DNA of 63,197 bases from an uncultured Candidatus Peribacteria bacterium (GCA_964558895.1 CAZLFU010000001.1:1-63197), one strand, 5' to 3'. Positions 8,481 to 48,171 are shown, counted from the first letter of the stretch. The notes: generated by a model from the sequence alone, not told the origin. Program-made: numbers and translations.

Positions 8481-8596
8481 TATCTTTTTTAGGGATGTAT
8501 CTATCTTTATATGCTTTCTATTTGATCGCTGAAGCCGTTATAGCAATGTGAAACACATTATTTACAGTAGAAATTAATGTGGTAATATACACAATA

Positions 8597-9046
8597 ATGA
8601 AAACGCCGAATAACATCTTTGTATACGGCTCAATGCTATCTCCTGAAGTTGTTAAGGCGATAACAGGCGAGGAGGGTATTTCTGCAAGCGACGCATGTAT
8701 TAAGAACTTTGCGCGTAGAAAGCTTAAGGACAGAGATTATCCAGCAATAATTCAACACGAAGGCAGTATTGTAATTGGGAAAATTTTGCATGAGGTTCGT
8801 GAAGACTTAGTGCAGCTAATAGATACGTTTGAGGGTGATGAATATGTAAAAAAGGAAGTAAGAGCTGTACTCAGCGATGACTCTGAATTAAGTGCATTTG
8901 CTTATGTATGGAATGGTGACCCTGCAGATGTTCGTAATGAAGATTGGGATTTTGCGCATTTTGAATCACACAAATTACGCACTTTTCTTTTGCAAACTCT
9001 GGATATCATGTCGGGCAATCCATTAAAAGAACATTACAATGATTGA
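8597..9046 (+). CDS. Gamma-glutamylcyclotransferase-like (AIG2/GGACT family) protein
   Basis: 'NIFVYGSMLSPEVV', 'YPAII...GSIVIGKIL', 'LIDTFEGDEYVKKEV' match the AIG2-like fold pattern. Start at ATG 8597. Confidence 0.55.
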   Translation: MKTPNNIFVYGSMLSPEVVKAITGEEGISASDACIKNFARRKLKDRDYPAIIQHEGSIVIGKILHEVREDLVQLIDTFEGDEYVKKEVRAVLSDDSELSAFAYVWNGDPADVRNEDWDFAHFESHKLRTFLLQTLDIMSGNPLKEHYND

Positions 9047-10082
9047 CTATTCTTTTTACAGAAAAATAGGCACTGATGGAATTAAAGACGTTGCAGATAG
9101 TGGACTGCATCCAGATGATCTCTTGCATCAATTAGAAGCCTCTAGATCTGAACTTCCTTATGTCGATCAAATTGAAACAACAAATAACTGTAATTTGAGA
9201 TGTGTCATGTGTCCTCGCACAAAGCATATGACCAGAGCCATAATTAACAGTATGCGAATGGATTTGTTTTGCTGCATTATTGATGAAATTGAAGAATACG
9301 AACAAGAAAAGAAACATCTAGGTATTAGCGAAGCTGATTACAAGCTTAATGGCCCCTTCAATTTACAGTGGCAAGGAAGTGATCATGATATTTTTGATTT
9401 GAGATTGCATCACTTTGGAGCGCCACTTTTAGATCCAGAAATTATCAACAGAGTTCAGTATGTAACTGACAATGCATCTTTTGGCACGCAGTTATCTGAA
9501 ACAGTGATTAATTTAAAGATAGAAAAGGTTAGAGAACTTTTTCACGCAAATCTGCGTAGATTGATTATTGCAATCGATGCCACTAATGCCGATGAATTCA
9601 TTCAAATCAGAGGACGAAAAATTGATTTTGTAAAAGAAATGCAACGTGTTCAGGAAATTGTAGAATTAAAGAAAAAAGAAGGGGCATCAACAAAAATTGA
9701 TATTCAAGTAATCGAATTATCAAAGACAGATGCAGATGAATTCAGCAAGATTTGGGGGGCACATGAAAATGTTGGCATTCTTCGAAAGTCATTCTTCCCT
9801 TATCCTGATATTGATCGATCCTTGGGAAAGCAAAGTGAATCGGATTTTAGTGGTAGTTGTGACTTTCCTTATACGTCAATTACAGTGATGGCTGATGGCA
9901 GGGTTGTTCCGTGTTGTGCCGACTACAATGGCGAAGTGGTACTGGGAGATTTGAATACGCAAAATTTGTATGAAGTATGGAATGGAGATCCATTTAAATT
10001 ATTTAGAGAGAGATTTGTAAAATCTCTATTTTCTCCAAACGACTTATGTAAACGATGCGGCCACTATCCATTTAAGGATTAG
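9039..10082 (+). CDS. Radical SAM enzyme with a C-terminal SPASM-like Cys cluster
   Basis: 'ETTNNCNLRCVMCPR' (CxxxCxxC). C-terminal 'CDFPYTSITVMADGRVVPCCADYNG...CKRCGH'. Confidence 0.7.
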   Translation: MIDYSFYRKIGTDGIKDVADSGLHPDDLLHQLEASRSELPYVDQIETTNNCNLRCVMCPRTKHMTRAIINSMRMDLFCCIIDEIEEYEQEKKHLGISEADYKLNGPFNLQWQGSDHDIFDLRLHHFGAPLLDPEIINRVQYVTDNASFGTQLSETVINLKIEKVRELFHANLRRLIIAIDATNADEFIQIRGRKIDFVKEMQRVQEIVELKKKEGASTKIDIQVIELSKTDADEFSKIWGAHENVGILRKSFFPYPDIDRSLGKQSESDFSGSCDFPYTSITVMADGRVVPCCADYNGEVVLGDLNTQNLYEVWNGDPFKLFRERFVKSLFSPNDLCKRCGHYPFKD

Positions 10083-11109
10083 CTTCTTCAAAAAAATCAG
10101 ACAATATTGTTTTAAAAGTAAAATTGCGGATATTTTCTCTTATTTGATTTAGCGCTTCCGACGACTCATCTTTCGAATCGTCCAGATGTTCCTTGATCAT
10201 CTGCACAGCCTCCTCATTTGAACGGTATAAAAAATTTCTTGGGAAAAAATAGGGATAGCATTGATCGTCAGGCAGTACGGGGTGGCAACCAGAGAGAACA
10301 GATTTCATAACCGAATACCCAAATAGTTCCTGCTTTGCGCAGCTCAAAACGACTTTTGACGAGGCAAGCGTCAAGGCATGCTGTTCATCATTTTCACCAT
10401 GCAGTAATTCGATGTTATCCATTGCAGATAAGGCATCATAGTATTTGCTACCTTTCGCCTGATCCTGTTTTTGAGGAACTGGAATAGCAATTCTGGCTTC
10501 AGGTATACCTTTTGCTATATCAATCAAATCAACTATGCCCTTATCCTCATTTAATCGATGGGGGAATATAACGTCATATTTCTTGTCAGGTGAAGTCGCA
10601 GGTGAAAATGCATCCATGCCATGCGGCATAAACTGCGTCTTTTTCTTTAGTGGTTCTGGCAACTGCGACTCTATATATCGAGACGGCGTGTATATGCTGT
10701 CATACGTATTAGCCCAAGCTGTTTCGTAGCTGCTCAGCCAATCAAATGAATACAGATCTCCACTTAGGAACGAACCACCTGATAAAATAGACCCATATTT
10801 GCATCGGAGATCCCTTTGAAGATGTGCATACCTCAGTATGTCCAAACCTGGATTAAAGAAATCCAAGAATAGTACTTTTGCTAACCCTTTGCGTCTGGTG
10901 AGTTCTGAAATTACTGCGATTTGTCCTTCAATATAACTCTCATCATCCAACAGCTCTCCTTTTAGGTTATTTTCTAGGGGCTCAATTTGCCCTGTTATCT
11001 CAATGGGAATATTCATTTTCCCTGCGCTCACTACGAGAGCCTGTGTCATCTCATCAAACGATGTGCCTTTATAGTGCGGGGGAATTGCAATGACGTTTGA
11101 TGCTTCCAT
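10072..11109 (-). CDS. Glycosyltransferase-like protein (GT-B fold, GT4-like)
   Basis: C-terminal 'QELFGYSVMKSVLSGCHPVLPD' resembles the E(x7)E/GT1-GT4 motif; 345 aa. Overlaps the convergent radical SAM gene by 11 nt. Confidence 0.45.
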   Translation of the reverse strand: MEASNVIAIPPHYKGTSFDEMTQALVVSAGKMNIPIEITGQIEPLENNLKGELLDDESYIEGQIAVISELTRRKGLAKVLFLDFFNPGLDILRYAHLQRDLRCKYGSILSGGSFLSGDLYSFDWLSSYETAWANTYDSIYTPSRYIESQLPEPLKKKTQFMPHGMDAFSPATSPDKKYDVIFPHRLNEDKGIVDLIDIAKGIPEARIAIPVPQKQDQAKGSKYYDALSAMDNIELLHGENDEQHALTLASSKVVLSCAKQELFGYSVMKSVLSGCHPVLPDDQCYPYFFPRNFLYRSNEEAVQMIKEHLDDSKDESSEALNQIRENIRNFTFKTILSDFFEEANP

Positions 11110-34610: not shown

Positions 34611-34886
34611 ATTGTCACTCTTTTCCTTTCGCTTCAAATCCTCATATTTCTCCAAGTACGATTCACCTAGATTCCCAAAGAAGGAAATGGTTCCCTTGGC
34701 AGCCTCTTTTGCTGTTTTGATGTACGGATTATTAGTATCATTCTTTTTCTGCTTGGTATCTGGTTGATCACCCAAATCTTTCATAGCGTGAAAAGCCCAT
34801 TTACCAAGGTTATCTAGTCCATTTTGGACATGGGCAAAACCATATCCCAATTGCTTTGCCAGAAACTTGAATTCTTGCTTTGCCAT
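34596..34886 (-). CDS. Hypothetical small protein (96 aa)
   Basis: ORF only. Confidence 0.35.
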   Translation of the reverse strand: MAKQEFKFLAKQLGYGFAHVQNGLDNLGKWAFHAMKDLGDQPDTKQKKNDTNNPYIKTAKEAAKGTISFFGNLGESYLEKYEDLKRKEKSDNSRSQ

Positions 34887-34940
34887 GCTTATAGCATAGT
34901 AATTTTGGCTCCAATATGCTATAATAATCGGATATCTTTT

Positions 34941-36353
34941 ATGTCAAAAACACATTCCAGATTCCTCTCCAAGGCATACTTTTTCTTTCCAGTCATTATG
35001 GTGCTTGGAGTGATAGGCTTTATGAGCTTGCTTCTTTTTACGAGAAGTAACGCGGTGATGTCACAAGAATTGAAACTACGCTTACAGAGTACGGCTGCAG
35101 TGGCCGCACTGCCATTTTCTGTCGATGATATAGAGCAGGTGTGGACAATGGCAGATATGCAGAAGCCTGTCTTTCGGAGTCTTGTCTTGCAGCTTCAACA
35201 AATTCGCGAAGTTATTCCTCATATTCGGTATGTGTACATCATGCGGAGAACAAGTGACCCAATGGTTCTCTCTTTTGTCGCAGATGCGGATGCTCTCAGT
35301 TCTGTAGAAGATTTGGATGAGAATGAGAATGGAGTTATCGACCCAGATGAACAGGTTTCTTATCCTGGCGATACGTACCCCATCGATGATATTGCAGCAC
35401 TTCGGCATGATGCTTTTTTGTTTCCAACTTCCGATGAGGAAATTACCTATGACCAATGGGGTGCATTGATTTCTGGATATGCACCTATTCGCGATAGCCG
35501 TGGTGAGACTGTGGCCATTCTTGGTATCGATATGGAAGCAGGGGAATATTTACGACAAGCTCGTAGGATCTTCTCTCCCTATATCATTTTACTCATTACT
35601 CTCATCGGAGTACTCCTTGCTGTGTACATTCTTCTCTTTCTTCGAGATAGGCGCATCAGCATGTTGCAGAAGCTCAACCAGGAACGAAGTGCTATGATGG
35701 ATCTTGCATCACATCAACTTGGAACACCTCTCTCTATTTTTAAATGGTGGGTAGAAATCATGAAAGAAAACCAAGGAAAAGTGACAGATACGCAAGAGGT
35801 GTGCACGCAGATGGAAAAGGGAATTGAGCGTATGGAATCTATTATGGATGCAATGCGAAAAGTGAATAACATGCACAAAAAATCTCATGTATCTACTTCG
35901 GGAGAAACTTCTTTGGACAGAGCAGTGAGGGAAGTGCAAGATCATCTACAATTCCAGCTGCAGAAGAATAAGCAAACTCTGAAGCATTCATTAGGAAAGG
36001 GGATCATGGTGAAAATGGAAAAAGAATTGCTTACAGGTGTTCTCGATGAAGTGCTGATGAATGCACTCTCCTATTCTCCAGAAGGTGAGACTATTTTCAT
36101 TCGTGCAAAAGCACAGAGAAAATTTGTGCAGATAGAAGTGGAAGATCGTGGTTGTGGAATCCCCGAAGATGATATCGATCATGTCTTCGAAGAATTTCGT
36201 CGTGGTTCCAACGCGGCAAAGTGCCAACCTGTTGGAAATGGCATAGGACTCTTTGTCGCCAAAGGTATTATAGAAACAGTGGGTGGCAAAATTTGGTTGA
36301 AGACACAGGAGGGGAAAGGCACAACAGTGTTCATAAAATTGCCGACGGAATAA
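34941..36353 (+). CDS. Sensor histidine kinase
   Basis: Two TM helices flank a periplasmic domain. H-box 'LASHQLGTPLS'; N-box 'VLMNALSYS'; 'VEDRGCGIP'; 'GNGIGLFVAKG'. Start at ATG 34941. Confidence 0.85.
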   Translation: MSKTHSRFLSKAYFFFPVIMVLGVIGFMSLLLFTRSNAVMSQELKLRLQSTAAVAALPFSVDDIEQVWTMADMQKPVFRSLVLQLQQIREVIPHIRYVYIMRRTSDPMVLSFVADADALSSVEDLDENENGVIDPDEQVSYPGDTYPIDDIAALRHDAFLFPTSDEEITYDQWGALISGYAPIRDSRGETVAILGIDMEAGEYLRQARRIFSPYIILLITLIGVLLAVYILLFLRDRRISMLQKLNQERSAMMDLASHQLGTPLSIFKWWVEIMKENQGKVTDTQEVCTQMEKGIERMESIMDAMRKVNNMHKKSHVSTSGETSLDRAVREVQDHLQFQLQKNKQTLKHSLGKGIMVKMEKELLTGVLDEVLMNALSYSPEGETIFIRAKAQRKFVQIEVEDRGCGIPEDDIDHVFEEFRRGSNAAKCQPVGNGIGLFVAKGIIETVGGKIWLKTQEGKGTTVFIKLPTE

Positions 36354-36647
36354 TGGGAGGATCATAATTTTCGTGATACATTGTTCTTCTCATTCGTCAG
36401 CTAGGCTGACTACTGAGGACGTGAAGGTGTAGTTCACTTAAACAACTGGGGATGACCCGCCTACATCCGCCTGAGGCAGATTACGGACGGGCAAGAGGAG
36501 AAAGTAATGATTTTCATTATTTGTAGCTCATTTACACCACTGGGGATGATCCTCCTTCGTCAGCGTTGGCTGACTACGGAGGACAAGCAGGCGACCTAGG
36601 AGGAGTCTCCTTCGTCACTTTTACAATATTTATGTCGCTTAGATTAT

Positions 36648-37095
36648 GGGGATGACAGGTATCGACAGCGTGAATCTAGGTATTGATCGCCCTGCACCAG
36701 ACACTTTGTGTCGATGCTGGGCAAGCTTCTGTTCGGGATGGCAACGGTTCCCGATACCCACTTGTTGCACCAACAATTGCAAACACTGCAATGAATGCTT
36801 TCCGTAACGCTGCTGCTAGAGGACAGGAACTCGCAAGAGGATTTGTTCTTCAGCCAGCTATGGTAGCTTAGTTCGCCCTTGCGCGAACACGTCTCTCCTT
36901 TGATCCTCGCTAAGAGGATGAGGCGTCACTAGCGAGGTGGGAATACACTTGATGTGATGTATTCCGTCATACAGCATCAACCCTCTCTTTTGTTCTTCGT
37001 CCGCTTCTTATAAAAGAGAGTATCGAAACGGACATGACAGTATGAGCACAGTGTCTACACGTTGGACCCGGGTTCAAATCCCGGCATCTCCACCA
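36648..37095 (+). ncRNA. ssrA: tmRNA (transfer-messenger RNA)
   Basis: 5' GGGGATGACAGGTATCGACAGCG. 3' GGACCCGGGTTCAAATCCCGGCATCTCCACCA (T arm CCGGG-TTCAAAT-CCCGG). Acceptor GGGGATG/CATCTCC has one G-U pair. Internal tag frame ends ...LQPAMVA-TAG at 36869-36871. Confidence 0.85.
36781..37095 (+). repeat. 315-bp direct repeat, copy 1 (3' part of the functional tmRNA)
   Basis: Identical by eye, base for base, to 44100-44414. Confidence 0.9.
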
Positions 37096-37171
37096 ACGGC
37101 TTTAGTAAGCCATTTTATAATGATTGACTAAATTTGCTAATATTTAAAAAAAGTGTATTGTAATTATTCCT

Positions 37172-38887
37172 ATGCGTAGTATTGAAAATGATAGGGAGTT
37201 GAATCCAGTTAGCCAAAACCCCTTTGCTACAGAGATATCACTTTATGAAAAAAATAGAAGTGCTGGAGATATTCCTGTGGCCGTAAGTGTCCCAGATTTT
37301 TACCCAGTTGCATTTCCGAATATTGGACATCAGATCATTGAAAAACGGGTGAATGATATGCAGGATTATTTTGCTTATCGATGCTACTTGTCGACTGATT
37401 ACAAAATACTTAGAGAATCTCAAATCCCTTCGGAACTCGTTCTTATTTCCATGAGTTATGAAGGTTCCTACATACGGGCTCTACGTGTTCTCGATCAATT
37501 AGGCATCCCATTAGAAGCAAACAAAAGAACTGAGGAAGATCCAGTGGTGGTTTTCGGAGGCCGTGCTGTTTCTATAAATCCGCTACCACTTTTTGATACA
37601 GCTGATGTAATTGGAATTGGAGATGGTGAAGAACTTATAGTAGAAATTTGTGATGCTTTTCGTGCAGCTCGAACATGTCGAAGTAAATTATTTGAACTTC
37701 TTAATGGTAAAAGGGGAATTGTAATTCCTTCGCGTTATCATGTTGAAACAGAAGGAGGTTATTTGAAAACTTGGGAACCAAAAAACGCGCCGCTAGATAT
37801 TGAGCCAAATCGAGGCTCATCGTTTCCTCATTCTTGGTATCTTTCTTCAGAAACAGATTATAACGATATTGGTTACTACGAAGGTCAAACATTTTTTTCA
37901 ATGGAGATTGTCAAAGCATGCGCTTCCAAATGTCTATTTTGTGCTGAAGGATTTAATAACGGAAGAATGCGTTTTACTGACGACACTGAAAATATTACGA
38001 AGCTTGGTAGTTGGGCAAAAGACAAAGGTGCTGACCTCGTAAAATTATTTTTTCCAGCGAATTCGACTGTGGAAACGACAAAAAATATCGTTCGCTCGTT
38101 ACTTGATCTTGGTTTACAACCACGAGTTGGCTCTGCAAAAGCTGAAAAAATAGATCGTGAATATATCGAGTTTGTAGGTAAATCAGGACAAGAAAAAATT
38201 GCTTTCGCCCCTGAAACTGGCGATTACGAACTGAGGAAGAAATTAGGAAAGCCCGGCATGACAAACGAAGTCTTGGATACAGTAATTACTAATGCTTTAG
38301 AAGCTGGTATTCCGAATGTTGATTTTTACTTCATTATGAACCTTCCTGGTGAGACACCTGAAAGCTTCCAAAGAACTGTAGATTTGATTGGACATTTTAG
38401 GGATCTTACTAGGAGGCTTGGGATGAAAGGAAGAATGAGAATGTCTGCACCGAATTTCTTTCCAAAGGCTTGGACTCCTTTCCAATATGCACCTTCCGGC
38501 GATATAAATTTATATAACGATAAAATTCATATGATCGAAGCGGTGCACGGAGACGGTGTTAAAGTTAGTAATATGCAGGGAAATGTTGATTTACTGTCAC
38601 AAAATATAATGTCCAGAGGCGGCAATGAAGTTGGCTCTTTACTCCGAAGGGTTTATGAAAGACAAAAGGAACGAGAGGCTCATACAGGCCAATTCACACC
38701 TGATACTTTCGAAGATTGGAGAGTGGCACTGCAAGAACTAGGATTGTCCGAGGAACAGTATTTTTCAGCAAAGGAAGGAGATTTGCCTTTGCCATGGCAC
38801 CATATACGAATGCACAATTCAGTTGATTCCTTACATAAAGCATGGGAAGTCTTCAAGGGTAGAACTATTCCTCTCCCTGTTATATGA
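37172..38887 (+). CDS. Radical SAM protein with an N-terminal B12-binding-like domain (TIGR03960-like family, function unknown)
   Basis: 'MEIVKACASKCLFCAEG' (CxxxCxxC). N-terminal 'VVVFGGRAVSINPLPLFDTADVIGIGDGEE'. Confidence 0.6.
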   Translation: MRSIENDRELNPVSQNPFATEISLYEKNRSAGDIPVAVSVPDFYPVAFPNIGHQIIEKRVNDMQDYFAYRCYLSTDYKILRESQIPSELVLISMSYEGSYIRALRVLDQLGIPLEANKRTEEDPVVVFGGRAVSINPLPLFDTADVIGIGDGEELIVEICDAFRAARTCRSKLFELLNGKRGIVIPSRYHVETEGGYLKTWEPKNAPLDIEPNRGSSFPHSWYLSSETDYNDIGYYEGQTFFSMEIVKACASKCLFCAEGFNNGRMRFTDDTENITKLGSWAKDKGADLVKLFFPANSTVETTKNIVRSLLDLGLQPRVGSAKAEKIDREYIEFVGKSGQEKIAFAPETGDYELRKKLGKPGMTNEVLDTVITNALEAGIPNVDFYFIMNLPGETPESFQRTVDLIGHFRDLTRRLGMKGRMRMSAPNFFPKAWTPFQYAPSGDINLYNDKIHMIEAVHGDGVKVSNMQGNVDLLSQNIMSRGGNEVGSLLRRVYERQKEREAHTGQFTPDTFEDWRVALQELGLSEEQYFSAKEGDLPLPWHHIRMHNSVDSLHKAWEVFKGRTIPLPVI

Positions 38888-39552
38888 ATAAAAGAATCAG
38901 CCATATCTTATTGGATCTCGACGGCACATTAACCAATAGCATGGATATTTTTTATGAGGTTGATAGACAATTCCTTGCAGCAAATAAAATAGAGCTGACC
39001 GAAGAAGATCTGGCACAGATGCAGCTTGAAGATGGGTTCGAGGTGCTTCGTTCGATTTTAGATACACGATCTAATTTAACAGAAGATGAAAAAGTTAAGA
39101 TTATGCAAAAAATTTTAGAGGCAAGTGTTAATGAATTAGCTGAGAAAGTGAGGTGGTATTCCGATGTTGAGCCATTCGTAAAAGACAGTTTATTGTATCC
39201 TGTAACTATCGGGATTGTTACTAGATCCAATGCACGAGATTTAGATACTATGCAGCATCAAATTCCTGTTCGCTCATTAATCCCTATTATAGTTCAAGGT
39301 GAAGATACCAAGGGTCGCCATAAGCCTAATCCTTATCCACTTATTCTGGCTGCAGAGAGATTAAATGTGGATCCAGAGAATTGTATTTATGTTGGTGATC
39401 ATCAAAATGATCTTCGTGCAGCTAAAGCAGCAAGTATAAAGAGTTGTATTATATTGAGAAAGCATGTTCCACAAGAACTTATACAGAAAGCGGATTTTTC
39501 AATAAATTCTCTTTCTGAACTTTTTTCAATTGCCCTAAACGAAAATGAATGA
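38884..39552 (+). CDS. HAD-superfamily phosphatase
   Basis: 'ILLDLDGTLTNS' motif I; 'VGDHQNDLRAAKAA' motif IV; 4-nt overlap with the upstream gene. Confidence 0.7.
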   Translation: MNKRISHILLDLDGTLTNSMDIFYEVDRQFLAANKIELTEEDLAQMQLEDGFEVLRSILDTRSNLTEDEKVKIMQKILEASVNELAEKVRWYSDVEPFVKDSLLYPVTIGIVTRSNARDLDTMQHQIPVRSLIPIIVQGEDTKGRHKPNPYPLILAAERLNVDPENCIYVGDHQNDLRAAKAASIKSCIILRKHVPQELIQKADFSINSLSELFSIALNENE

Positions 39553-40711
39553 ATTCACATTCCATTCTGCAGAATCCGTATTTCGCGGCCATCCGGATAA
39601 GATAGCTGATCAAATTAGCGATTCAATTGTTGATGCATATCTTCAACAGGATAAATATTCTAAGGTTGCCTGTGAAACGTTGGTAAAACAAAATTTAATT
39701 GTCGTAGGTGGTGAAGTAACATCTGCAATCGAGGTAAATATTGATGAGGTAGTTTGTGAAACAGTGAAGCGAATCGGATACACTGATTCTTCTAAAATTT
39801 TTAACGTTAATAATTTAGAAATAATTAAACGTATTACAGCTCAAAGTCCAAGTTTTACTGAAAAAATCGGCAATAAACAGCGTCAGGATGTCGTGGCATC
39901 TGACCAGGGTATTTTATATGGATTTGCATCAAATGAATCACCCACAAAGATGCCGTTGCCAATGTATTTGGCACAAAGTATTACGCAGGAAATCGAAAAT
40001 GCACGCGTCACTAAGCAATTGCCTTACCTTCAACCAGATGGGAAATGCCAAGTTACTGTAGCGTATAGTAAAAATAATCAGGTAGACCATGTTCATTCGG
40101 TGGTTGTTTCAGCTCAGCACAAGCCAGAGCAAGATCCTGAAAATGTCATTGCTGATATCCGATATCTTCTTGATGGAATTTTTGATCCACATTTGATTAC
40201 TCCTAACACTAAATTCTTCATTAATCATTTCGGAAAATTTATAAATGGTGGACCTGAATTTGATTGTGGAATAACAGGTAGGAAACTTTTAATCGATACG
40301 TATGGTTCTGCTGCAAGGCATGGCGGTGGAGCATTTTCCGGGAAGGATCCGAGTAAATTGGATCGTTCTGGTGCTTATGCTGCCCGATGGATTGCAAAAA
40401 ATATTGTTTCTGCAGATTTAGCAGCGCAATGTGAAGTTGAGTTAGTTTACGCGATGGGATATGAACAGCCGATCTCTATCGGTATTCAGGCAAAAGGTAC
40501 GGAAAAAGTTTCCATTAGCAAAATTGAAAAAGCTGTGAGGGGGGCATTTGATTTGAGACCATCTGCAATAGTAGAAGAGCTTGGTTTACGGGATATTTCT
40601 TCATATAAAGATCTCGCCTTCGGTGGCCATATGGGTCGTCATGATCTTACAATGCCTTGGGAATCAACTCAAAAAGCATCATTACTTTCAAAGGTGTTAC
40701 ATGGCTCATGA
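39545..40711 (+). CDS. metK: S-adenosylmethionine synthetase
   Basis: 'SAESVFRGHPDKIADQISDSIVDA', 'GAFSGKDPSKLDRSGAYAARWIAKN'. Confidence 0.95.
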   Translation: MNEFTFHSAESVFRGHPDKIADQISDSIVDAYLQQDKYSKVACETLVKQNLIVVGGEVTSAIEVNIDEVVCETVKRIGYTDSSKIFNVNNLEIIKRITAQSPSFTEKIGNKQRQDVVASDQGILYGFASNESPTKMPLPMYLAQSITQEIENARVTKQLPYLQPDGKCQVTVAYSKNNQVDHVHSVVVSAQHKPEQDPENVIADIRYLLDGIFDPHLITPNTKFFINHFGKFINGGPEFDCGITGRKLLIDTYGSAARHGGGAFSGKDPSKLDRSGAYAARWIAKNIVSADLAAQCEVELVYAMGYEQPISIGIQAKGTEKVSISKIEKAVRGAFDLRPSAIVEELGLRDISSYKDLAFGGHMGRHDLTMPWESTQKASLLSKVLHGS

Positions 40712-41852
40712 TTTGAAAAATTCAGGAGAATCTAATCAAGAAAACTGCATTGTTTTCACAGGAGCACCTTGTTCAGGTAAAACATCTACGCTTCGCTTGC
40801 TTCAACAAAGCGGATTTGGGATTTGTGACGAAGCTGCTGACTTATACGTTGTTAATGAATTAAATAAGGGTAAGACAATTGAAGATATTTTAGCTGACCG
40901 CTTATCTCTAGAAATTGGTGTTACGCGCCTTGCTTTAATACGAGAGGCAGGCATTGCCCCGGATGCCCTTCATTTTCTTGATCGTTCTGCAATTGACTCC
41001 GTAGGTTATTCAAGAACATATAATATCGATCCGATCCCCTTTGAAAGTGAGATTCGCAATAAAAGATATAATCCTAATGTTTTTTTCTTTGATCGATTGG
41101 GCCTGCTTAATAATAGGCTGGAAAGAAGTGAAATTGAAGTATTGGAGCTGGAAGGGCAATTAGAAGCTGCATATAAAGAACTCGGGTATGAAATTATCCG
41201 CGTTCCTTTAATGAGTGTTCGGCATCGAGCGTGGTTCATTCTCACGGAAATTCAGAAGAGGATAACGGATGTTAAATTTGGTGAAGCATTAAGCAGACGA
41301 TTGGGAATTTCCGAAGCATTGCGCTTAAATTATGAGAACTTTCAATTTTACGCGCCAAATAGAAGATTTGATGAACAAAGTGACGAACTGCTTAGGGTAA
41401 AAGCATCGCGTGAGGGTATATCTGGAATAAATATTAATATCATTGTTGTGAATGATAAAAATCATATTCTCTTTCTTAAGCGTGCCCTTCATGATTCTCA
41501 TGCCCCGGGAAGTATCGGATTGCCAGGTGGCACCCGTGAACCAGAGGAATCTCTGATTATTACTATGGAAAGAGAAATGAAAGAGGAAACAGGTATACAA
41601 GCGTCCGAAGAACTATATTTAGTGGGCTCATATGATATTGCTTCTGAAACAGCAACATGGAGATCTTTTACTTTCTTAAATAAAATTCAAGGATCAGAAG
41701 TATTATTAGATCCTGAAGAGCATTCTGGTTATTTTTGGGAGAATTTTTCTGACGAAAAAATGTTGCTGAGAACTGAATTACATAGTCCTGGTGAAATGAT
41801 TATGATTCATAATACTCAGGCAAATCTTTTGGCTAAGAGATTAATAGTATAA
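40701..41852 (+). CDS. P-loop ATPase (AAA_28/NadR-like) fused to a Nudix hydrolase domain
   Basis: 'FTGAPCSGKTST' Walker A. C-terminal Nudix box 'GLPGGTREPEESLIITMEREMKEETG'. Start set at ATG 40701 (the track start lies inside metK). Confidence 0.7.
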   Translation: MAHDLKNSGESNQENCIVFTGAPCSGKTSTLRLLQQSGFGICDEAADLYVVNELNKGKTIEDILADRLSLEIGVTRLALIREAGIAPDALHFLDRSAIDSVGYSRTYNIDPIPFESEIRNKRYNPNVFFFDRLGLLNNRLERSEIEVLELEGQLEAAYKELGYEIIRVPLMSVRHRAWFILTEIQKRITDVKFGEALSRRLGISEALRLNYENFQFYAPNRRFDEQSDELLRVKASREGISGININIIVVNDKNHILFLKRALHDSHAPGSIGLPGGTREPEESLIITMEREMKEETGIQASEELYLVGSYDIASETATWRSFTFLNKIQGSEVLLDPEEHSGYFWENFSDEKMLLRTELHSPGEMIMIHNTQANLLAKRLIV

Positions 41853-42293
41853 AAATCATATCCGTTCTAATGTTGGAGAATCTAGATTCTTTGTAATGCA
41901 CCAAGTTGCTTCGCCCATCCCATAATCAACTGCTCAAGGCGGTGTAAACTTTTTCGCAGCACCTCCACCAACCTCCGCAGGAGGTTGTCAACCATAGCCT
42001 CCGCGCAGCGGAGCAGTTGTTGACCTCTTTGGGCAACACTTCTTAGCTACGGTTGGTGGTCCTGCGGAATCATACGCGGCGGCTATCACACCTGGCTATG
42101 ACATGACATACTCATGACGTATCAAGGCAATGAATACAGATATCGCACAAGCACTAATGGTTCTATCGTTCGAGTCGAATAAGACTGCTTTTTCTTTCTG
42201 GTTGCTACTGTGAATCGATTGATTCTTTTAAAAGCTTATGCCCCATTCCATTCATCTCATTCAATAGATTCAAACTTTTCGTACCGATTCTAC

Positions 42294-42321
42294 AAAAAAC
42301 CCGACCATATGGTCGGGTTTT
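42294..42321 (-). terminator. Rho-independent terminator
   Basis: cccgacc-atat-ggtcggg flanked by A6 and T4. On the minus strand it follows the stop of 42346..43140. Confidence 0.75.
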
Positions 42322-42345
42322 AAAGACACTAGGTTTCAATATAAA

Positions 42346-43140
42346 CTACCGAATCCAGAAGACGTCGGTGATGATCTTGTTGCCGTTACCGAGATCGCGC
42401 TCGTATCGGTGGTCACTTATTTGTCGACCCCATGCTGAGGGGTTGTTGAGATCAATATCCTGCCCTACATTCGCGGGCTTTCCATTTCCTTTACCATTGC
42501 CACCTCCATCACTGCCACCACTGATAATGTATGTATTTACACTATCGAGGTGAGCGTAAATCGCTGTGAGCTGGTCATAGTCATGCTGGTTTGGATGCTG
42601 ATTTGGCGTTGGATCTGGGTCGGTGTAATCCATACACGTTCCGAGAGGAGCATTACCAAAATCTTCATCTTGATGACCAAGACCAAATATATGGCCAATT
42701 TCCTGACAGGTTACAAGACTTCTCCAAGCGGTTGTGTTGTACTTCGCAGTATTAAAGTATGTATCGTTGAGCTTTACTACTCCTTGAGTGATGTGGCCTC
42801 CACTGATCCAAATTTGAGCGATGCCGAGCCAGCCGGTATTACCATATGTACTATTACAGATTTCTGCACGGCCATTCGTTGCACTGCAGTTGCGAGGCTT
42901 TGATTTACCAGCCACAACAGAGGTATGAAGTACAGAAGAGAGATTCCAGTCGCTACTTGCAAGAGAAAGATGGCTATCCCATACATTGGAAACGTTATCA
43001 CCTAGTTCAAGTGGAAGGGGGTTTGCTGTGCGTCCCCAGTGATAACTAGCCCACGAGTGGCTAGCGTATGCACTAACGACAAAGGTCAATGAAGTTAAAA
43101 CAACTCCAGCTGATAGGAATGCATGTGAATATTTCTTCAT
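42346..43140 (-). CDS. Secreted metzincin-like protein with a variant zinc motif (QEIGHIFGLGH)
   Basis: Signal peptide 'MKKYSHAFLSAGVVLTSLTFVVSAYA'. 'QEIGHIFGLGHQDE' fits HExxHxxGxxH except that the first His is Gln (codon CAG read directly). Confidence 0.6.
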   Translation of the reverse strand: MKKYSHAFLSAGVVLTSLTFVVSAYASHSWASYHWGRTANPLPLELGDNVSNVWDSHLSLASSDWNLSSVLHTSVVAGKSKPRNCSATNGRAEICNSTYGNTGWLGIAQIWISGGHITQGVVKLNDTYFNTAKYNTTAWRSLVTCQEIGHIFGLGHQDEDFGNAPLGTCMDYTDPDPTPNQHPNQHDYDQLTAIYAHLDSVNTYIISGGSDGGGNGKGNGKPANVGQDIDLNNPSAWGRQISDHRYERDLGNGNKIITDVFWIR

Positions 43141-43210
43141 ACAATGAAATGTTATAGATAATAGGATATAATTATACTCTAAAATAACATCAAGTCAACA
43201 ATATTTAATT

Positions 43211-43946
43211 GGTTCATTTCTAGTTTAGAGGTCTTTTTCGAAAGAGCTTTAGTAACAAATTATAGAGGTTTTCCTTTCGATGGTTAAATCGAAATTCACA
43301 TTCCTTGAGATGAAGGTAGAAAGTAGATTTATGCATGCCTCTTGCTCTAGTCAGACGTACTTTTGCCAATCCCCAGAAGTTCTCAATGCCATTGATATGA
43401 CTTTTCCCACGAGCAAATTCATTGTCTCCATGGTGCACTCGATAATGTTTACGATAGCCAACGTCTACAAGTCCATCATACGCTTTCCAGTTGTCACTGT
43501 AGATAATACTGTCAGGATCAACTTTTCCCTTAATAATGCTATGAAGTGTATATCTATCTGCTTCTTCAATGATCTTTGTGTATACCTTTCCCTGTCTTTT
43601 TAGGAGTCCAAATACTGGTGTTTTCTTCCCTGCACCACGTCCTCTCTTCCCGCGTACACGCCTTGGATCAAAGTAGGATTCATCAACTTCAATATCACCC
43701 TTAAACAGAGATTCATTCTCACACTCCTCTGCAATACGCTTACGAATGATTTGGAAATATCGATGCACGGTGTTCGCATTTAAACCTGTTAATTCCACTA
43801 CTTTCGTTGCCTCCAAATCGAGACAAAAATACTTCAAAAGAGCTCTGAATTTCTCTTCAGAAATATGGGCTCTGTTGATGTAACGATTTTTTGGCTTCAT
43901 GGAGCTAAGAGAAGGATACCATCCTCTTCTTAACTAGAAATGAACC
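43211..43946 (-). mobile_element. IS1595-family insertion sequence (736 bp) with 15-bp perfect TIRs and an 8-bp target duplication
   Basis: TIR GGTTCATTTCTAGTT at 43211-25 and its reverse complement at 43932-46. Direct repeat ATTTAATT at 43203-10 and 43947-54. Confidence 0.85.
43220..43900 (-). CDS. IS1595-family (ISXO2-like DDE) transposase
   Basis: 'IEVDESYFDPRRVRGKRGRGAGKKTPVFGLLKRQGKVYT', 'IYSDNWKAYDGL', 'HINGIENFWGLAK'. Confidence 0.8.
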   Translation of the reverse strand: MKPKNRYINRAHISEEKFRALLKYFCLDLEATKVVELTGLNANTVHRYFQIIRKRIAEECENESLFKGDIEVDESYFDPRRVRGKRGRGAGKKTPVFGLLKRQGKVYTKIIEEADRYTLHSIIKGKVDPDSIIYSDNWKAYDGLVDVGYRKHYRVHHGDNEFARGKSHINGIENFWGLAKVRLTRARGMHKSTFYLHLKECEFRFNHRKENLYNLLLKLFRKRPLN

Positions 43947-44099
43947 ATTTAATTTTTTTGTGAATATTTTTCCAAACCCTCAAGAGTAGTCCTCAATTCC
44001 AGATACCAATCCATCATCTCCTCCATGTGGTTCTAGTTATTTTCTACCCCAATTAATCATGACTGAAGAAGACTGGAAACATGACGGTGAGCAATGGAT

Positions 44100-44414
44100 A
44101 AACACTGCAATGAATGCTTTCCGTAACGCTGCTGCTAGAGGACAGGAACTCGCAAGAGGATTTGTTCTTCAGCCAGCTATGGTAGCTTAGTTCGCCCTTG
44201 CGCGAACACGTCTCTCCTTTGATCCTCGCTAAGAGGATGAGGCGTCACTAGCGAGGTGGGAATACACTTGATGTGATGTATTCCGTCATACAGCATCAAC
44301 CCTCTCTTTTGTTCTTCGTCCGCTTCTTATAAAAGAGAGTATCGAAACGGACATGACAGTATGAGCACAGTGTCTACACGTTGGACCCGGGTTCAAATCC
44401 CGGCATCTCCACCA
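44100..44414 (+). repeat. 315-bp direct repeat, copy 2 (orphan tmRNA 3' fragment)
   Basis: Identical to 36781-37095. It lacks the tmRNA 5' part (no GGGGATG acceptor strand upstream). Confidence 0.9.
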
Positions 44415-44470: not shown

Positions 44471-44989
44471 ATGTCGACAATCCGCTTTACAGCTACACCA
44501 TTGAACATAGGGTCATGGACTATTCTCGTGCTGCCAAAAACTGCAAGTACGAAGTTTCCGTCGCGCGGCATGGCTATGGCCGAAGGAACCATCAATGGTT
44601 TCCACTTTCAGACTGCTCTCGAACCGGACGGGAAGGGGAGTCACTGGTTCAAGATCGAAAAAGCTATGCCGGTAACTGCTGGAAAAGAAGTGACACTTGC
44701 GATCGAGCCTGTGAAAGAATGGCCCGATCCCAACGTACCCACAGATTGGAAGAGCGCACTTGCGGCCAATCCGAAGGTGCAAAAACTTTGGAAGGAAATT
44801 ACTCCGATGGCTCGCTGGGACTGGATTCGCTGGATACGAATGTCTAAAAACCCCGAGACGCGCAAGAAACACATTGTGGTGGCTCTTTCCAAGATGAAAG
44901 CGGGAGAGCGACGACCATGTTGTTTTAACCGTAGCATGTGCACAGAACCGGATGTATCGCAGAATGGAAAGCTCCTTGATCCGGCGTAA
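44471..44989 (+). CDS. DUF1905 + YdeI-like domain protein
   Basis: 'GSWTILVLPKTASTKFPSRGMAMAEGTINGFHFQTALEPDGKGSHWF' is DUF1905-like. C-terminal 'WIRWIRMSKNPETRKKHI' is YdeI-like. Confidence 0.6.
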   Translation: MSTIRFTATPLNIGSWTILVLPKTASTKFPSRGMAMAEGTINGFHFQTALEPDGKGSHWFKIEKAMPVTAGKEVTLAIEPVKEWPDPNVPTDWKSALAANPKVQKLWKEITPMARWDWIRWIRMSKNPETRKKHIVVALSKMKAGERRPCCFNRSMCTEPDVSQNGKLLDPA

Positions 44990-47768: not shown

Positions 47769-48171
47769 CAATTCTGTAATTCTTTCATGATTGTAATCAG
47801 TTTGGCAACATAACCAAAGCCAACGCAATTTACTCCAAACATCCTCGTGTCCGCTGCACATGTTTGAGCGCGAAGCACTACATCAGTATTCTCCTTTCTA
47901 GCGCTCGAATGCCAAGTTGCGTAAGCAAGCTTGGTTGAGAGCGCGCACAGGTCTGTAAGAAAGAAGGATGGCTTTGCGCGAGCTTGCAGCGGACAAAGGC
48001 TTTTTGGTTCTTTTTAGCCTGTCCTGAGCTTGTCGAAGGGGCTCTCAAAAAGAACAAAGAGTATTGAGAAGCATGCTGCAACGGAGGTACCAGGAAGGAA
48101 ATTGTTTTGTATCACGAATTCTATTAGCTTAACTATACATGTGCGATTCTTCTCTTCGAGTGCTACTGTAG

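Follow-up and report, generated by a model that had tools for sequence, protein, structure and literature searches.

The closest described parallel to the locus treated here comes from Dehalococcoides, in which genomic islands that carry the serine recombinase DsiB insert at the 3' end of ssrA, the gene for tmRNA, which is single-copy (McMurdie et al. 2011, PMC3146451). In those islands dsiB lies beside attL on the reverse strand and overlaps ssrA, the boundaries are short direct repeats of the ssrA end, and tandem arrays are formed downstream of ssrA in which many members, neighbours of the islands with a serine recombinase, are without the integration module and are read as cis-mobilisable (PMC3146451). 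One of several possibilities that those authors raised and left unsettled is that dsiB could be fully functional when the element is circular (PMC3146451). The more general concept of cis-mobilisable elements (CIMEs) and of their accretion at tRNA and tmRNA sites is cited in the same paper and has been reviewed elsewhere (PMC5704250). We analysed the ssrA locus of an uncultured Candidatus Peribacteria bacterium in a stretch of 63,197 nucleotides (GCA_964558895.1, CAZLFU010000001.1:1-63197; the whole stretch is called the window below), where a long perfect duplication of the 3' part of ssrA brackets a segment of about 7 kb, 37096-44099. The main yield of the analysis is the link between integrase-less cassettes, one of which (cassette A) fills most of this segment, and the detachable C-terminal tail of a widespread large serine recombinase (LSR); the mechanism behind the long repeat itself is something we infer.

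Results

An exact 315-bp repeat at a native ssrA locus

The window is the largest contig of a metagenome-assembled genome (MAG) of 1.35 Mb in 210 contigs, which is 98% complete with 4.6% estimated contamination. The host is a member of the Peribacteraceae, within the candidate phyla radiation (CPR, or Patescibacteria), as the names of homologues assign it to Peregrinibacteria/Peribacteraceae, and comparisons were made with 151 genomes of that family. ARAGORN and Rfam find a single complete tmRNA gene, at 36648..37095 on the + strand, with a length of 448 nt and a predicted 30-residue tag (RF00023 matched over the full length of the model at 78.7 bits, against a gathering score of 47). Positions 36781-37095 of this intact gene are repeated on the same strand at 44100-44414; this second copy is an orphan 3' fragment of ssrA and still has the native downstream flank beside it. 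The two copies are identical over exactly 315 bp, with not one base of extension on either side; the shared block opens with the third base of GCA, the predicted resume codon, and closes with the terminal CCA. Ahead of the right copy, the 142 bp preceding the orphan fragment included, nothing matches the 133 nt with which ssrA begins. In an all-against-all comparison of the 210 contigs this is the longest repeat and the only one of more than 100 bp with 100% identity, which bears out the perfect and unusual duplication described in the initial annotation. A frame of 43 codons (44059-44190; MTEEDWKHDGEQWI...), whose ATG lies 41 nt ahead of the orphan fragment, continues in frame into the tag-coding sequence of the repeat and is probably a by-product of the junction.

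Both flanks of the duplication are native, as judged from synteny with relatives at ssrA. On the left is a histidine-kinase gene with a HATPase_c domain (34824..36353, + strand); in four other genera (G013, G021, G001 and G003) a homologue occupies the position immediately upstream of ssrA. On the right a YdeI-like gene (DUF1905 + OmdA; 44471..44989, + strand) corresponds to YdeI/OmdA-like genes that lie downstream of ssrA in five genera, at 4-12 kb past ssrA in G004, G005, G013 and G024 and after a gap of 55 bp in G020. From its gene order the G020 arrangement is effectively the empty site, and the right copy of the window, a long piece of authentic ssrA with an unrecombined core followed by native flank, is in effect an unused attB. 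Comparison of the ssrA locus among relatives thus supports the geometry proposed at the outset, an insertion at ssrA that leaves the complete gene to its left and an orphan 3' fragment to its right: the flanks are shared, and the radical-SAM gene of the intervening segment is absent from all 40 relatives in which it was sought. The search for histidine-kinase homologues gave no match above 50% identity, so no close strain was available. An exact-protein look-up returned no record for the YdeI-like protein or for the secreted protein encoded between the repeats (below), and an exact-pattern scan of metagenome and genome contig collections for the junction of the ssrA end with the native flank gave zero matches; no independent assembly of the species came to light.

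No recombinase domain was detected by Pfam, NCBIfam or PADLOC in any open reading frame of 37096-44099. The absence of an integrase between the copies therefore holds, as does the remark that the sole mobility gene there is an IS1595-type transposase near the right repeat.

Cassette A is a discrete unit with its own short repeat

By sequence comparison the segment between the repeats is composite, and its larger part, cassette A (37096..41970, + strand; ~4.9 kb), is a horizontally shared, integrase-less member of a family of LSR elements. Cassette A begins at the base after the CCA end of ssrA and ends in TCCACCA (41964-41970), the last 7 nt of ssrA. It thereby has a short att-type repeat of its own, CA[T/C]CTCCACCAAC, which in full is a 13-nt direct repeat with one mismatch (CATCTCCACCAAC at 37085-37097 and CACCTCCACCAAC at 41960-41972). 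Its composition is foreign, with a GC content of 38.3% that falls in the lowest 1.5% of genome windows and a tetranucleotide distance at the 98.8th percentile.

The four-gene operon of the cassette is also present, with a nucleotide identity of 92-94%, on two Logan contigs (L032 and L033). In L032, as in the window, it follows the CCA of a tmRNA gene without an intervening base, and this tmRNA gene has a different tag, a diverged internal sequence and an unrelated upstream flank; a neighbouring gene that L032 shares with the window is only 72% identical at the protein level. The homology of the window and L032 ends at the same base, after which CACCTCCACCAAC follows in the window and GATGTCCACCATT in L032, each a near-copy of the respective local ssrA end. 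Cassette A is thus a discrete 4.9-kb unit that two lineages have gained by horizontal transfer, each at the same site. The samples SRR17828888 and SRR17828891 also hold it. A further contig of 4799 bp (L053, ERR3169472), recorded in 19 samples, contains a 77%-identical version of the operon and only its four genes, as would be expected of a discrete unit whose flanks are repeated or variable.

Two bases past the CCA, cassette A opens with the hairpin GGCTT-TAGT-AAGCC (37098..37111, + strand; GGCTTnnnnAAGCC), which probably also terminates transcription of ssrA. The corresponding junction motif, TCCACCA-WY-GGCTTnnnnAAGC, occurs in 24 of the 151 family genomes (0 with the reversed pattern as control), both at true ssrA ends and, in several of them, at boundaries between cassettes on the ssrA contig, 1.5-13.5 kb past the gene, and in G013 two tandem cassettes open with the same 180 nt. 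These positions and the G013 tandem indicate that stacks of integrase-less cassettes behind ssrA are common in the family. Hairpin-led junctions are also seen after two apparent tRNAs that end in TCCACCA or CCCACCA (L058, G073:C137:1100-1830; L070, G014:C14:10320-11060), so the cassettes may not be limited to ssrA.

A detachable recombinase tail at the cassette ends

Five related genera carry an LSR gene at this site. The LSR of G024 (571 aa; Resolvase + Recombinase + Zn_ribbon_recom) is encoded convergently with ssrA and overlaps its last 158 nt, orthologues of 46-50% identity that overlap the ssrA 3' end are present in G015, G014, G022 and G096, and the clade numbers 2422 database proteins at E <= 1e-60. 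The far ends of the LSR-bearing islands share a right end of 30-60 nt, GGT(T/G)(C/T)(A/C)AAC(T)TTTT(T)CG-N7/8-TCCACCA, and the same right end closes many integrase-less units behind ssrA (in G004, G005, G013, G021, G003, G096, L032 and the window). Read antisense, it encodes (M/L/V)VDx(L/V)R(K/R)S(W/L)(N/H)xLxxL..W(A/Y)E, with a stop after 26-37 codons. This peptide is kept at the protein level across diverged DNA and is conserved at 16 element right ends in 10 genomes, three LSR-bearing islands among them.

The origin of the peptide is apparent from the 120 best homologues of the LSR. Fifty-four of them end in sequence antisense to ssrA (VEMPGxEPGSNV), at least 19 have the tail peptide as their contiguous C-terminus, and several of the remainder have ends that resemble antisense tRNA 3' ends; since the peptide is contiguous with the enzyme in those 19 or more proteins, it is the recombinase's natural tail. 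The right end of cassette A contains such a tail in antisense (41882..41971, - strand; LVEVLRKSLHRLEQLIMGWAKQLGALQRI plus stop) as an orphan. Its BLOSUM62 score against 22 tails is 43.7, and shuffled sequences score -20.8 +/- 9.3, which places it ~7 sd above them. With this match and no LSR, cassette A has a genuine family right end without the body of the recombinase.

We propose the following cycle for the family. The LSR gene adjoins ssrA in convergent orientation, and its reading frame spans the recombination site. On the free circle the enzyme would end in the tail VDxVRKSWNxLExL..W.E, which is encoded at the opposite end of the element, across attP, and on integration this tail would be swapped for codons antisense to ssrA (VEMPGxEPGSNV). 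Having no LSR body, cassette A would be mobile only with an LSR acting in trans or by accretion with a neighbour. The presence of the same cassette at the same site in two lineages lends indirect support to mobilisation in trans; no dyad symmetry was seen by eye in the reconstructed attP of cassette A.

The four LSRs of the genome itself were considered as the trans-acting enzyme and rejected, being at most 22% identical to the ssrA clade. Three of them (C33:~8559-10260, C19:~118-1880 and C1:23994-25680) have C-termini (for example ...WGSNPRPSGPQPDA and ...RGERARTSDLTP) that resemble tRNA-antisense sequence, which suggests tRNA targets, and the tail-swap geometry may be in use at several tRNA sites in this genome.

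The properties of the family also set the 315-bp repeat apart. In every element examined, what the boundaries have in common is the final 7-13 nt of ssrA, and the outer limit on the right is formed by the tail mimic that belongs to the element and not by a displaced piece of the gene; the relatives' ssrA loci examined showed no long repeat of ssrA. On these comparisons the 315-bp repeat is not an att site of the LSR-element family, in which the shared core is 7-13 nt.

Part B is native-like

The rest of the segment, part B (41971..44099), consists of one gene, one IS and non-coding DNA, and has no LSR tail at its right end. Without the IS its GC content is 43.9% and its tetranucleotide distance lies at the 41st percentile, so part B looks native; it is absent from both L032 and L033. 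Composition thus divides the segment that had been thought of as one island, with cassette A foreign and part B not.

The gene of part B (42346..43140, - strand) encodes a secreted 264-aa protein without a Pfam match. It has a metzincin-like QEIGHxxGLGH motif, which reads QEIGHIFGLGH and is the metzincin HExxHxxGxxH with the first His replaced by Gln. The gene is a patchy accessory one, present in 16 of the 151 family genomes at mostly 56-74% identity. It was on a different contig from ssrA in 12 of 12 checked carriers with a tmRNA found, and in the closest homologue (G135) only the coding region is alignable. Next to it is the IS1595-family IS (43200..43957, - strand; transposase at 43220-43900, NF033547 at 163 bits), which has 30-nt inverted repeats that are 87% complementary and occurs as a single copy in the assembly. 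The IS is placed in the promoter region of the secreted-protein gene, ends 142 bp from the right repeat and shows no obvious target-site duplication at its flanks. Non-coding DNA makes up a 373-bp stretch between the operon and the secreted-protein gene and the 142 bp after the IS. No integrase remnants were seen in frame translations of this DNA, no LSR tail motif in the antisense frames of 43958-44102, and no homologue of it in the relatives' ssrA loci compared.

Just beyond the end of cassette A, CGCAGGAGGTTGTCAACCA (41976..41994, + strand) resembles the family right end CGCAGGATGTCCACCA and may be a degenerate second att scar. A very stable multi-stem region (41950..42075, + strand) spans the boundary of A and B with a minimum free energy of -55 kcal/mol (z = -5.66); in its L032 counterpart the structure is not significant (z = -1.36). 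Within it the GCA-triloop hairpin CTCCGCGCAGCGGAG (41999-42013) resembles the hairpin directly after ssrA in G003.

A proposed history of stacked insertions

On balance we favour, somewhat cautiously, a history of stacked insertions in which the 315-bp repeat is a recombination scar that joins an occupied to an empty locus; the composite structure and the family membership of cassette A are much firmer than this recombination route. We infer the order of events as follows. In some conspecific locus ssrA, cassette A, the 19-nt scar and part B would have stood in series, the scar being the remnant of an earlier element. DNA of this occupied locus would then have been joined to an empty-site chromosome by two crossovers, one of them homologous, in or to the left of ssrA, and the other illegitimate, from position 44099 to ssrA nucleotide 134, and the 315 bp would thereby be present twice. 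The same product would come from a Campbell-type insertion, by one homologous crossover, of a circle made up of ssrA nt 134-448, A and B. IS1595 would have struck part B later. Under homology-facilitated illegitimate recombination and under Campbell-type insertion alike, a stretch of host sequence is expected to be duplicated perfectly, its inner boundary is arbitrary and no integrase is needed; such a joining would likewise account for a native-like part B and for the intact attB on the right.

Several points weigh against this history. The order of left repeat, A, B, right repeat and flank rests on the assembler. We found no conspecific genome or contig with an empty site or with B directly behind ssrA, so both the donor and the recipient haplotype are hypothetical, and the 44099/44100 junction has no clear microhomology. 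The genome, at 98% completeness, lacks an orthologue of the ssrA-specific LSR (22% identity in the best match), and no enzyme able to have placed cassette A is present now. Finally, the left arms of LSR-bearing and LSR-less elements differ, so that recognition in trans is only putative.

The strongest of the competing explanations, though we consider it unlikely, is an ambiguity of assembly, in which an empty-site chromosome together with an excised 7.3-kb circle, or a second haplotype, was threaded as an integrated form. In a de Bruijn graph both copies share one 315-bp node, so an excised circle and an empty site give the same graph as the integrated segment, and collapse of near-identical copies could mimic their perfect identity. 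The MAG, with its 210 contigs and estimated contamination, invites such a reading, as do its other repeats (100-270 bp, 95-99% identity), which lie at contig ends and indicate that the assembler generally broke at repeats. The contigs of three of 12 further relatives end less than 100 nt after ssrA (G130:C61:48-458, G109:C75:97-518 and G067:C4:93-493), which makes this a locus that is hard to assemble. However, the junction between B and ssrA nt 134 must exist in real molecules, since there is no homology on the B side, and linking information is required for a contig to pass the one 315-bp node two times, if we reason correctly about assemblers. A 7.3-kb circle would, moreover, have no replication gene, so that an integrated form must exist. 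The contig breaks in G130, G109 and G067 are in themselves consistent with strain-variable or repeated content at a hotspot.

A second alternative would have both parts arrive by site-specific insertion: B was excised imprecisely together with ssrA nt 134-448 and re-integrated, by an LSR or through homologous recombination, and the rebuilt ssrA end finally received A. The family as a rule has stacked arrays, and the hairpins after A's att copy are as expected in DNA that once lay behind an ssrA end. Against these stand the larger number of steps required, the native-like character of B and its want of a family right end, and the location of the secreted-protein gene away from the ssrA contig in all the genomes checked, and we regard this course of events as rather improbable.

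The initial annotation had named an integrase-decayed island among its alternatives. Spelled out, this would be a single island whose site-specific integrase crossed over near the resume codon, with the 315 bp as an identity block that rebuilds the gene and with later loss of the integrase, perhaps through an IS1595-associated deletion. The classical geometry, intact gene to the left and orphan 3' fragment with native flank to the right, agrees with it, and an IS1595 without an obvious target duplication is compatible with an adjacent deletion. But the segment consists of at least two layers that differ in composition and history, and A has its own 13-nt repeat and is shared elsewhere without B or the long block. 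Furthermore, every family element examined recombines at the last 7-13 nt of ssrA, no long ssrA repeat was found in the relatives' loci examined, and the gaps of B contain no integrase fragment. A single island with a 315-bp att core thus does not survive the comparison well, and we judge it quite improbable. Least of all can we credit IS1595 with the duplication, which was one of the initial suggestions, whether by composite, replicative or one-ended transposition: it is the sole transposase in the segment and is near the right repeat, but it is present in one copy where a composite transposon needs two, the junction is 142 bp past its end, it sits like a simple late insertion into a promoter region, and elements of its family duplicate only ~8 bp of target.

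Cargo genes of cassette A

The four genes of the operon are all on the + strand. The first (37172..38887) encodes a B12-type radical SAM enzyme (Radical_SAM_N2 + Radical_SAM) and is followed by a HAD-family phosphatase gene (38884..39552), which overlaps its neighbours by 4 and 8 bp, and by a gene for a divergent S-adenosylmethionine (SAM) synthetase, MetK (39545..40711). The last gene (40701..41852; 383 aa from the ATG at 40701) encodes an AAA_28 P-loop domain fused to a NUDIX hydrolase, and the gene call in L032 is of equal length. The earlier identification of metK is upheld by TIGR01034 at 426 bits, against a cut-off of 309. This is a second copy, as a housekeeping metK on contig C163 scores 574 bits and is 42% identical to the island MetK at the protein level. 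The 315-bp repeat makes the 7.3-kb segment, with its second SAM synthetase and radical SAM enzyme, deletable by one recombination step, as had been pointed out; the associated fear for an essential gene is unfounded, since with the metK on C163 loss of the segment would not remove the only one.

The radical SAM enzyme belongs to a distinct small clade of ~40 orthologues at 53-96% identity, below which identity falls to 28%, and this clade is scattered over Peribacteria, Saccharibacteria, Acidobacteriota and Gammaproteobacteria. A NUDIX gene is its neighbour in every context examined, and HAD and MetK genes often are. A gene with the Pfam domains tRNA-synt_1g and Anticodon_3 was seen beside it twice, and this domain content suggests a methionyl-tRNA synthetase paralogue. 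Some loci have genes with TIR, caspase-like or trypsin domains alongside, and others an SMC-like ATPase, a helicase and a serine recombinase. In three metagenomic loci (L044 and L045, from JGI 3300009551 and 3300025924, and L046, from SRR14877765) the radical SAM gene is next to MetK and an apparent extra methionyl-tRNA synthetase; a CAP12-PCTIR TIR-methyltransferase, a trypsin-like protease and a caspase-like protein are also near it in L044 and L045. From its gene content this neighbourhood looks methionine/SAM-centred and defence-like.

The radical SAM enzyme has no sequence relative in the PDB and no PHROG or PADLOC assignment. PADLOC found no catalogued defence system among the cargo proteins, the only hit being a weak Nudix-domain match (PDC-S07, 2.9e-7), and a literature search on the cargo function gave nothing relevant. 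The gene content suggests a pathway that consumes SAM, comes with a supply of it and produces or alters a nucleotide-like small molecule, possibly for defence.

Repeats in and around the locus

Upstream of the true 5' end of ssrA, the region 36404-36591 contains two degenerate copies of the ssrA 5'-end motif CTGGGGATGA, within repeats at 36428-36470 / 36522-36564 and 36404-36427 / 36568-36591. G005 has a 25-nt copy of its own ssrA 5' end, 96% identical and 67 bp upstream (L028 2053-2077 / 2120-2144); duplication of the ssrA 5' end thus recurs in the family. A MITE-like dispersed repeat of ~150-270 bp is present in at least 10 copies of 95-99% identity, at 47815-48097 in the window and at C15:13375-13650, C158:2232-2488, C6:19378-19634, C32:3648-3878, C25, C124:1-187, C14:1-170, C12 and C43; as many copies lie at contig ends, this repeat seems to be a main cause of fragmentation in the assembly. 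An intergenic motif, GCCGCAGCGGAGTCGAAGGGCCC, is common to L032 (5640-5670) and G005 (L028 5578-5609 and 5749-5780) and looks like a family-wide REP-like repeat.

Discussion

The locus indicates that accessory operons spread between lineages in small cassettes aimed at the end of the tmRNA gene, and that these cassettes depend on a widespread serine recombinase whose C-terminus is swapped at each integration. To our knowledge, almost no mobile-element biology has been described in CPR bacteria, with their tiny genomes, and the theme of ssrA islands and CIMEs is barely documented there. A tentative extrapolation, which we offer as a possibility and would not yet defend, is that the Peribacteraceae, and possibly many CPR or other candidate phyla, use the 3' ends of ssrA and of some tRNA genes for an integron-like system of cassettes. 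If this were so, small integrase-less cassettes would each carry a terminator-like hairpin at one end and, at the other, a detachable last 'exon' of the serine recombinase, and the cassette downstream of the recombinase gene would decide the C-terminus of the enzyme. The stack would then capture genes as an array and at the same time act as a switch for the recombinase, and the radical-SAM/MetK/Nudix operon would be one circulating cargo, possibly a defensive one. A more immediate consequence is that a long perfect repeat at an integration hotspot need not be an att site, which calls for caution with automated island callers that rely on repeats.

Comparison with known systems

For the outer repeat, the model of homology-facilitated illegitimate or Campbell-type recombination departs from the window in that no donor haplotype was found and no microhomology is visible. 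The classical islands at tRNA and tmRNA genes (Islander-type) reportedly carry tyrosine integrases, as Williams is said to have set out in 2003 in 'Traffic at the tmRNA gene'. The window resembles them in its intact target gene with a displaced 3' fragment, in its sporadic distribution, the segment being absent from relatives that keep the flanks, and in its foreign composition. It differs in that no integrase, tyrosine-type or other, lies inside, in that relatives use a serine-type enzyme at ssrA, and in that the 315-bp repeat is not an identity block of the Islander kind.

Cassette A is like a CIME in keeping attL- and attR-like ends, in having neither recombination nor transfer genes and in being stacked with remnants of other elements. 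Unlike the situation envisaged for CIMEs, its cognate recombinase is not in this genome, and its mobilisation is putative.

The ssrA islands of Dehalococcoides come closest. They share with the Peribacteraceae elements the insertion at the ssrA 3' end, the short repeats, the tandem arrays, the integrase-less members and an LSR that overlaps ssrA. Cassette A has the first two of these, as does L032, and it has the LSR tail at its right end; an LSR gene at attL is absent from the window and present in G015, G014, G022, G096 and G024. There are also clear differences, of which the phylum is one. The core is 20 bp in Dehalococcoides and 7-13 nt in the Peribacteraceae, and the six-gene integration module of the former has no counterpart in the latter, whose elements are small. 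An exact 315-bp ssrA fragment as outer boundary is found in the window and not in the Dehalococcoides islands. Lastly, it is for the Peribacteraceae elements that the right end has been shown to encode the tail of the recombinase.

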